Assembly: GCF_003334335.1 (NCBI RefSeq)
Contig: NZ_QOWQ01000078.1
Source: Escherichia coli
Lineage (GTDB): Bacteria > Pseudomonadota > Gammaproteobacteria > Enterobacterales > Enterobacteriaceae
Length of the DNA stretch: 4,565 bases
Strand: one strand, 5' to 3'
Of this stretch, positions 1,728-1,786 are shown piece after piece (positions within the stretch are counted from its first letter, which is position 1; each line of letters begins with the position of its first letter). A program made the translations under genes and the position numbers. The notes below the pieces were generated by a model that saw nothing but the letters and a program-made list of their open reading frames with translations, did no database searches and had not been told where the DNA came from.

Positions 1728-1752
1728 AATGGGCTACCAAAAGTAGCCCATT
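1728..1752 (-). terminator. Rho-independent terminator (distal of two) downstream of chiA: 10-bp stem including GGGCUAC/GUAGCCC, followed on the − strand by AUUUUUAUUCAUAUUU
   Basis: Inverted repeat 1728-1737 / 1743-1752 with a 5-nt loop; U-rich tract immediately 3' on the − strand. Confidence 0.6.
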
Positions 1753-1755
1753 GAC

Positions 1756-1786
1756 AAAAAATGCGGCGATACTGGAAGGTATCGCC
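1756..1786 (-). terminator. Rho-independent terminator (proximal) downstream of chiA: 7-bp stem GGCGAUA/UAUCGCC, 8-nt loop, then GCA + UUUUUU on the − strand
   Basis: Inverted repeat 1765-1771 / 1780-1786; A6 run at 1756-1761 on + gives U6 on the − strand, 3 nt after the stem. Lies 8 nt after the chiA stop. Confidence 0.6.

Follow-up and report, generated by a model that had tools for sequence, protein, structure and literature searches.

Two hairpins, each followed by a U-rich tract, lie in tandem on the coding strand between the stop codon of chiA and the promoter-like site of bfd in the 4,565-nt stretch of Escherichia coli DNA analysed here (hereafter the window), and we consider it likely, with a probability of roughly 0.75, that both are Rho-independent terminators of a monocistronic chiA unit, the first (hairpin A) being sensitive to ribosomes and the second (hairpin B) likely serving as a fail-safe. 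The presence of two such elements at this place had been claimed in an earlier note and is borne out: on the coding strand, each hairpin combines a stem, a loop, a U-tract, a position after the stop codon and a positive terminator score. Termination in vivo by either hairpin and the division of labour between the two are inferred.

The window corresponds to the tufA-chiA-bfd-bfr-gspO region of E. coli and matches K-12 MG1655. All of its genes but gspO are carried by the minus strand, namely the 3' end of tufA (about 4470-4565), chiA, encoding a bifunctional chitinase/lysozyme of 794 aa (1794..4178, with the stop codon TAA at 1796-1794), bfd, encoding 64 aa and being the first gene of the downstream unit (1431..1625), and bfr (883-1359); gspO occupies positions 177-854 of the plus strand. 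The list of open reading frames and the annotation of matching E. coli genomes, on which the placement of chiA and bfd rests, show that the genes had been correctly assigned in the first reading of the window. A putative bfd promoter, made of the hexamers TTGAAA and TATTTT with 17 nt between them (1650..1678, minus strand; -35-like hexamer at 1678-1673), overlaps a weak Fur-box-like match (11/19, 1677-1659), which is conserved in relatives and not decisive alone; the promoter-like stretch is likewise conserved in the relative L013, a locus described below. Over the interval that runs from bfd up to the stop codon of chiA, position x of the window corresponds to position x + 3465366 of K-12 NC_000913.3, an offset that was checked on the bfd annotation.

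Hairpin A (1787..1764, minus strand), recovered both by a terminator scan and by folding, has a 9-pair stem with 5 G-C pairs and a 6-nt loop, TGGCGATAC-CTTCCA-GTATCGCCG, then CATTTTTTG; direct reading of the sequence gives a U-tract of six consecutive T (1761-1756, minus strand), i.e., UUUUUU after the closing GCA. The hairpin can be extended to 1790..1762 and, by pairing of A-rich with U-rich sequence, beyond this to include the chiA stop codon. Hairpin B (1752..1728, minus strand), recovered in the same two ways, has an 11-pair stem with 5 G-C pairs and a 3-nt loop, AATGGGCTAC(T)-TTT-(G)GTAGCCCATT, then ATTTTTATTC. Its U-rich tail, found by direct reading and by the scan, is AUUUUUAUU (1727-1719, minus strand), the stem being followed by ATTTTTATT at these positions, or (A)UUUUUAUU in the notation used for the U-tract of hairpin A. 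The two stems start 6 nt (hairpin A) and 41 nt (hairpin B) past the chiA stop codon and are separated by a spacer of 11 nt, from the end of stem A at 1764 to the start of stem B at 1752, both on the minus strand. The chiA stop codon and the promoter-like hexamers of bfd flank the two hairpins, and for both genes the minus strand is the coding strand. The span of 1728-1786 originally given for the pair is accurate to 1 nt for the stems and stops just short of the U-tract of hairpin B (1727-1719). On K-12 NC_000913.3 the release sites would be expected at about 3467122-3467127 for hairpin A and at about 3467085-3467093 for hairpin B.

When folded alone, hairpin A reaches -14.0 kcal/mol (z -5.1) and hairpin B -16.2 kcal/mol (z -5.6), none of 200 shuffles folding as well as either, and the 101-nt region resolves into a pair of distinct hairpins (z -7.3). 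Under strict settings (a minimum of 9 pairs and of 5 G-C pairs, a 3-8 nt loop, and 5 T or more in the 8 bases that follow), a scan returned only three sites on the minus strand of the window (the tufA terminator, hairpin A and hairpin B) and none on its plus strand, with a chance expectation of 0.027 sites per strand in dinucleotide shuffles. The same scan recovered a tandem pair in 0 of 1000 strand shuffles and two sites in 0 of 5000 shuffles of the intergenic region. These strict settings were adopted because the number of sites returned by a looser scan (8, with 5.0 +/- 2.4 expected) is by itself not significant. According to the d score of d'Aubenton-Carafa, for which d > 0 counts as positive, hairpin A scores 10.6 in the window allele and 22.2 in an allele with G in the loop, and hairpin B scores 14.5; both are thus positive, but weaker-scoring than the tufA terminator (30.5). 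The corresponding U-tail scores are 4.56 for hairpin A, 3.84 for hairpin B and 4.09 for tufA. The Term-seq supplements searched hold no entry for chiA, bfd or the hairpin coordinates, a result that would look alike for a silent gene, and a literature search for chiA, bfd and terminator returned unrelated papers only.

The textbook tandem terminator is rrnB T1-T2. Terminators of this kind, also called 'U-shaped' or clustered, consist of two same-strand hairpins with a spacer under about 15 nt; the paired hairpins are thought to add up to fuller termination, and two-hairpin clusters are the commonest cluster type (PMC8355165). The same source cites a proportion of about 15% of E. coli terminators that are tandem and 'U/V-shaped' (PMC8355165). 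The chiA pair, with 11 nt between two minus-strand stems, falls within this spacing range and resembles the class in having, soon after a stop codon, two same-strand hairpins with a short spacer between them, each I- or L-shaped in appearance. It differs from the class in being predicted from sequence, in its place behind a gene that is silenced and horizontally variable, not behind a highly expressed operon, and in that its first hairpin abuts the stop codon. The pair belongs to a familiar and unremarkable type of double terminator, of little significance beyond annotation and holding nothing surprising for a specialist; it sets the probable 3' boundary of the E. coli chiA unit, such that bfd-bfr is to be treated as a separate unit.

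A start site of its own has been mapped for chiA, a gene that H-NS silences in K-12 (PMC3950696). Under the explanation we favour, chiA would be transcribed from this H-NS-silenced promoter of its own, and an RNA polymerase leaving the gene would meet hairpin A and its six-U tract right after the stop codon and then, about 35 nt further, hairpin B and its U-rich tail, with transcripts ending 40-75 nt ahead of the bfd -35 box. Geometry offers a likely reason for the doubling, since hairpin A lies only 6 nt from the stop codon, where a terminating ribosome would block it. A ribosome positioned on the chiA stop codon would cover the 5' arm of hairpin A, whose folding would be weakened or prevented whenever translation closely trails transcription, and hairpin B, 41 nt past the stop codon, would lie beyond the reach of the ribosome and catch the polymerases that pass hairpin A. 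In a folding calculation, a 13-nt mask counted from the first base of the stop codon weakens hairpin A from -15.5 to -4.1 kcal/mol, and a 16-nt mask from the stop codon abolishes it altogether, while hairpin B stays at about -16 kcal/mol.

A precedent is provided by tR2, for which termination in E. coli is almost completely repressed close to a stop codon (a spacing of 6 bp was modelled), depends strongly on sequence at 17-18 bp and is maximal beyond 30 bp, the repression being attributed by the authors to a terminating ribosome that blocks hairpin folding (Li et al., PMC4824070). Hairpin A stands at the modelled 6-nt geometry and hairpin B past the 30-bp distance of maximum termination, and the masking calculation on the two hairpins gives a matching picture. 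However, tR2 is a single terminator of a phage (lambda), placed on a reporter plasmid and sequence-specific at intermediate distances, whereas the behaviour of the chiA pair is computed only, and the masking argument is limited to that extent because the precedent concerns a different terminator on a plasmid. With this limit, masking by ribosomes is a more likely explanation for the doubling than insulation from tufA. The locus may be regarded as a natural stop-proximal terminator with a distal backup and, together with the genomes that have no chiA, as a possible test case for the effect of ribosome position on termination.

Among 5426 complete E. coli genomes, the chiA-bfd-bfr arrangement is shared by 3161, in which it is 95-100% identical to the window. 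A 79-nt segment carrying the hairpins occurs in one copy per genome in all 3161 chiA-carrying genomes; it is at least 99% identical to the window in 1900 of these 3161 copies and has 1-3 mismatches in the rest. The loop-G allele of hairpin A, which closes one extra pair, is present in all six diverged strains aligned, and in the diverged strains sampled this A/G difference in the loop is the sole change inside the hairpins, the other variable sites lying nearer the bfd promoter. In an alignment of 10 sequences, only B1172 and isolate 12 show changes in the stems. The two most divergent matches were fetched: one carries an A-C mismatch that breaks stem B, and the other a C-to-U change that preserves a G-U pair, together with the loss of the chiA stop codon. 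The conservation of the hairpins within E. coli carries little weight as to selection, since the whole region is 98-100% identical and there are no compensatory changes to read. In the isolate without the stop codon (L020, NZ_CM194533.1), at the equivalent of window positions 1788-1796, TAA is replaced by AAA with a 3-nt deletion, and the annotated chiA reads on through hairpin A, so that ribosomes would run into the first terminator. Of the 3161 copies of the chiA-bfd junction, one comes from a record that is classed as plasmid, not chromosome.

Contigs scanned with the ChiA catalytic domain yielded two loci only: L012, in which the loop-G allele of E. coli is present, and L013, which belongs to an Enterobacteriaceae metagenome-assembled genome and is the only positional homologue found outside E. 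coli. The DNA of L013 is 77% identical to the window over the last 300 nt of chiA, 82% over bfd and 71% over the promoter-proximal part. Its hairpin segment is unalignable to that of the window, yet two hairpins are again present, 4 nt and 35 nt past the stop codon. This pattern would fit a conserved RNA structure and not a conserved DNA site, although the case, which comes from a single homologue, is thin because the first hairpin of L013 has only three U and the second a d score of -11.4. In L018, which encodes a more distant homologue of ChiA, one strong hairpin follows the gene. Both L014 and L018 were rejected as positional homologues since their ChiA homologue has an extra C-terminal part, and the apparent likeness of L014 to the sequences flanking hairpin A comes down to 8 nt that match by chance (E 1.1); L015 and L017 were set aside as comparison loci, being unlinked to bfd. 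A DNA-pattern scan of metagenomes for the ending FAPFTKQ-stop followed by CAG gave two unrelated matches only.

It is doubtful that only one of the two hairpins terminates, with the other being a by-product or a 3'-end stability element that shields the chiA mRNA from 3' exonucleases. Such a reading would agree with d scores that are moderate for both hairpins compared with tufA, with a second hairpin scoring below zero and a first with a poor U-tract in L013, with the stem B mismatch tolerated by one E. coli genome, and with the lone hairpin behind the ChiA-homologue gene of L018. However, the L018 gene ends in an extra domain and is therefore not a positional homologue, and in the window a U-tract directly follows each of the two stems, and does so only on the coding strand, which a pure stability hairpin would not need. 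Both inverted repeats are near-perfect DNA palindromes 50-110 bp upstream of the bfd -35 box, as might suit an action as DNA, either as protein-binding palindromes (for example an operator upstream of bfd) or as members of a repeated palindromic family; this is nevertheless highly improbable, given that the T-tracts are found 3' of the stems on one strand only, that the 79-nt segment is present once per genome without any other match at E<=1, and that the entirely different sequence of L013 has kept its hairpin potential, as fits RNA structure. A REP/BIME-like repeat in particular was rejected on the basis of a sensitive blastn search with the 79-nt segment (E<=1), which found one place per genome in 3161 genomes. 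We also regard it as most improbable that the segment is a small RNA or a regulatory RNA derived from the 3' UTR, whose hairpins would form a terminator and an Hfq-binding module. A terminator hairpin followed by a U-tract is indeed also the 3' module of Hfq-dependent sRNAs (PMC9765468), but no Rfam family matched anywhere in the window at E<=1, no promoter-like site lies just upstream on the minus strand, and the sequence is not conserved in L013. Two further classes were rejected. An attenuator or riboswitch-type switch does not agree with a hairpin B that keeps its full strength when the 5' arm of hairpin A is removed or masked, the best pairing between the 3' arm of A and the 5' arm of B reaching only -6.3 kcal/mol. 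A bidirectional terminator does not agree with the absence of any plus-strand site and with chiA and bfd being on the same strand, so that no gene converges on the pair; the A-rich sequence preceding hairpin A provides only a poor plus-strand tail, ACACAUUUAUUGC.

The earlier note had seen in the pair a strong insulation of the iron-regulated bfd-bfr operon from transcription arriving from chiA and, further upstream, from tufA. The position of the pair, between same-strand upstream genes, with the chiA stop codon on one side and the bfd promoter-like site on the other, is consistent with such a role, and tandem hairpins have been reported to out-terminate single ones (PMC8355165). The part of the proposal that concerns tufA is weak, however, because tufA has its own, higher-scoring terminator (d 30.5) 2.6 kb upstream of the hairpin pair and because chiA is absent from 2233 of the 5426 complete E. 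coli genomes. The tufA terminator (4446..4419, minus strand), identified by the scan, by folding and by its d score, has a 12-pair stem followed by UUUUU; it shares with the chiA pair its strand and its architecture of a G+C-rich stem and a U-run, and differs in a shorter and G+C-richer core stem, in a tetraloop, in its score and in being a single copy. In the chiA-less genomes bfr-bfd is only about 79% identical in DNA to the window, and the four loci fetched (L002-L005) have neither chiA nor the gsp operon, with bfd 182 bp behind tufA. In L002, the one that was read through, the tufA terminator, identical in its stem, is the sole hairpin between tufA and bfd. The tufA terminator is the element that actually separates tufA from the downstream genes. 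Furthermore, chiA itself is silenced by H-NS, so that there would normally be little chiA transcription to insulate against (PMC3950696). It is therefore unlikely that the pair serves mainly as an extra-strong insulation of bfd-bfr from heavy upstream transcription including that of tufA. Quite improbable, too, is a translation-sensing two-step terminator, in which the coupling of translation to transcription would set the 3' isoform of chiA and the read-through into bfd-bfr when chiA escapes H-NS: closely following ribosomes would mask hairpin A, and termination would shift to hairpin B or partly fail. If true, it would link chitinase induction to the expression of iron-storage genes.

The chiA-bfd-bfr locus as a whole (window 883-4418) is dimorphic in E. 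coli. In chiA-less L002 the divergence from the window starts directly after the tufA terminator, and all four chiA-less loci fetched carry a short gene for a 155-aa prepilin peptidase beside rpsJ. The tufA-chiA intergenic region of the window (4179-4418) is strongly A+T-rich, with 27% G+C over 4201-4350, and contains several promoter-like matches on both strands, which fits the published silencing of the chiA promoter by H-NS (PMC3950696).

The ChiA protein itself varies in length, with 794 aa in the window and 897 aa in K-12 MG1655 (L001 3161-5854). The difference is a single exact deletion of 103 aa (alignment columns 47-149, comprising a carbohydrate-binding repeat and linker), all other residues being identical, and chiA is annotated as a gene of 2703 nt in other strains; these observations indicate that either the copy number of the repeat varies between strains or the repeat collapses in assemblies. 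A UniProt entry named 'Endochitinase 11, Metarhizium anisopliae' (P0005), ascribed to a fungus, is 97% identical to the catalytic region of E. coli ChiA and looks more like a bacterial contaminant in a fungal library than a gene of the fungus.

At the other end of the locus, a G+C-rich hairpin, CCGGGAGGG-TTCT-CCCTCCCGG, at 856-875, occupies the 28 bp that separate the stop codons of two convergent genes, gspO (854) and bfr (883). It folds at about -18 kcal/mol on either strand, is without a U-tract on both, and could serve as a stability element or as a bidirectional terminator of the U-less type.
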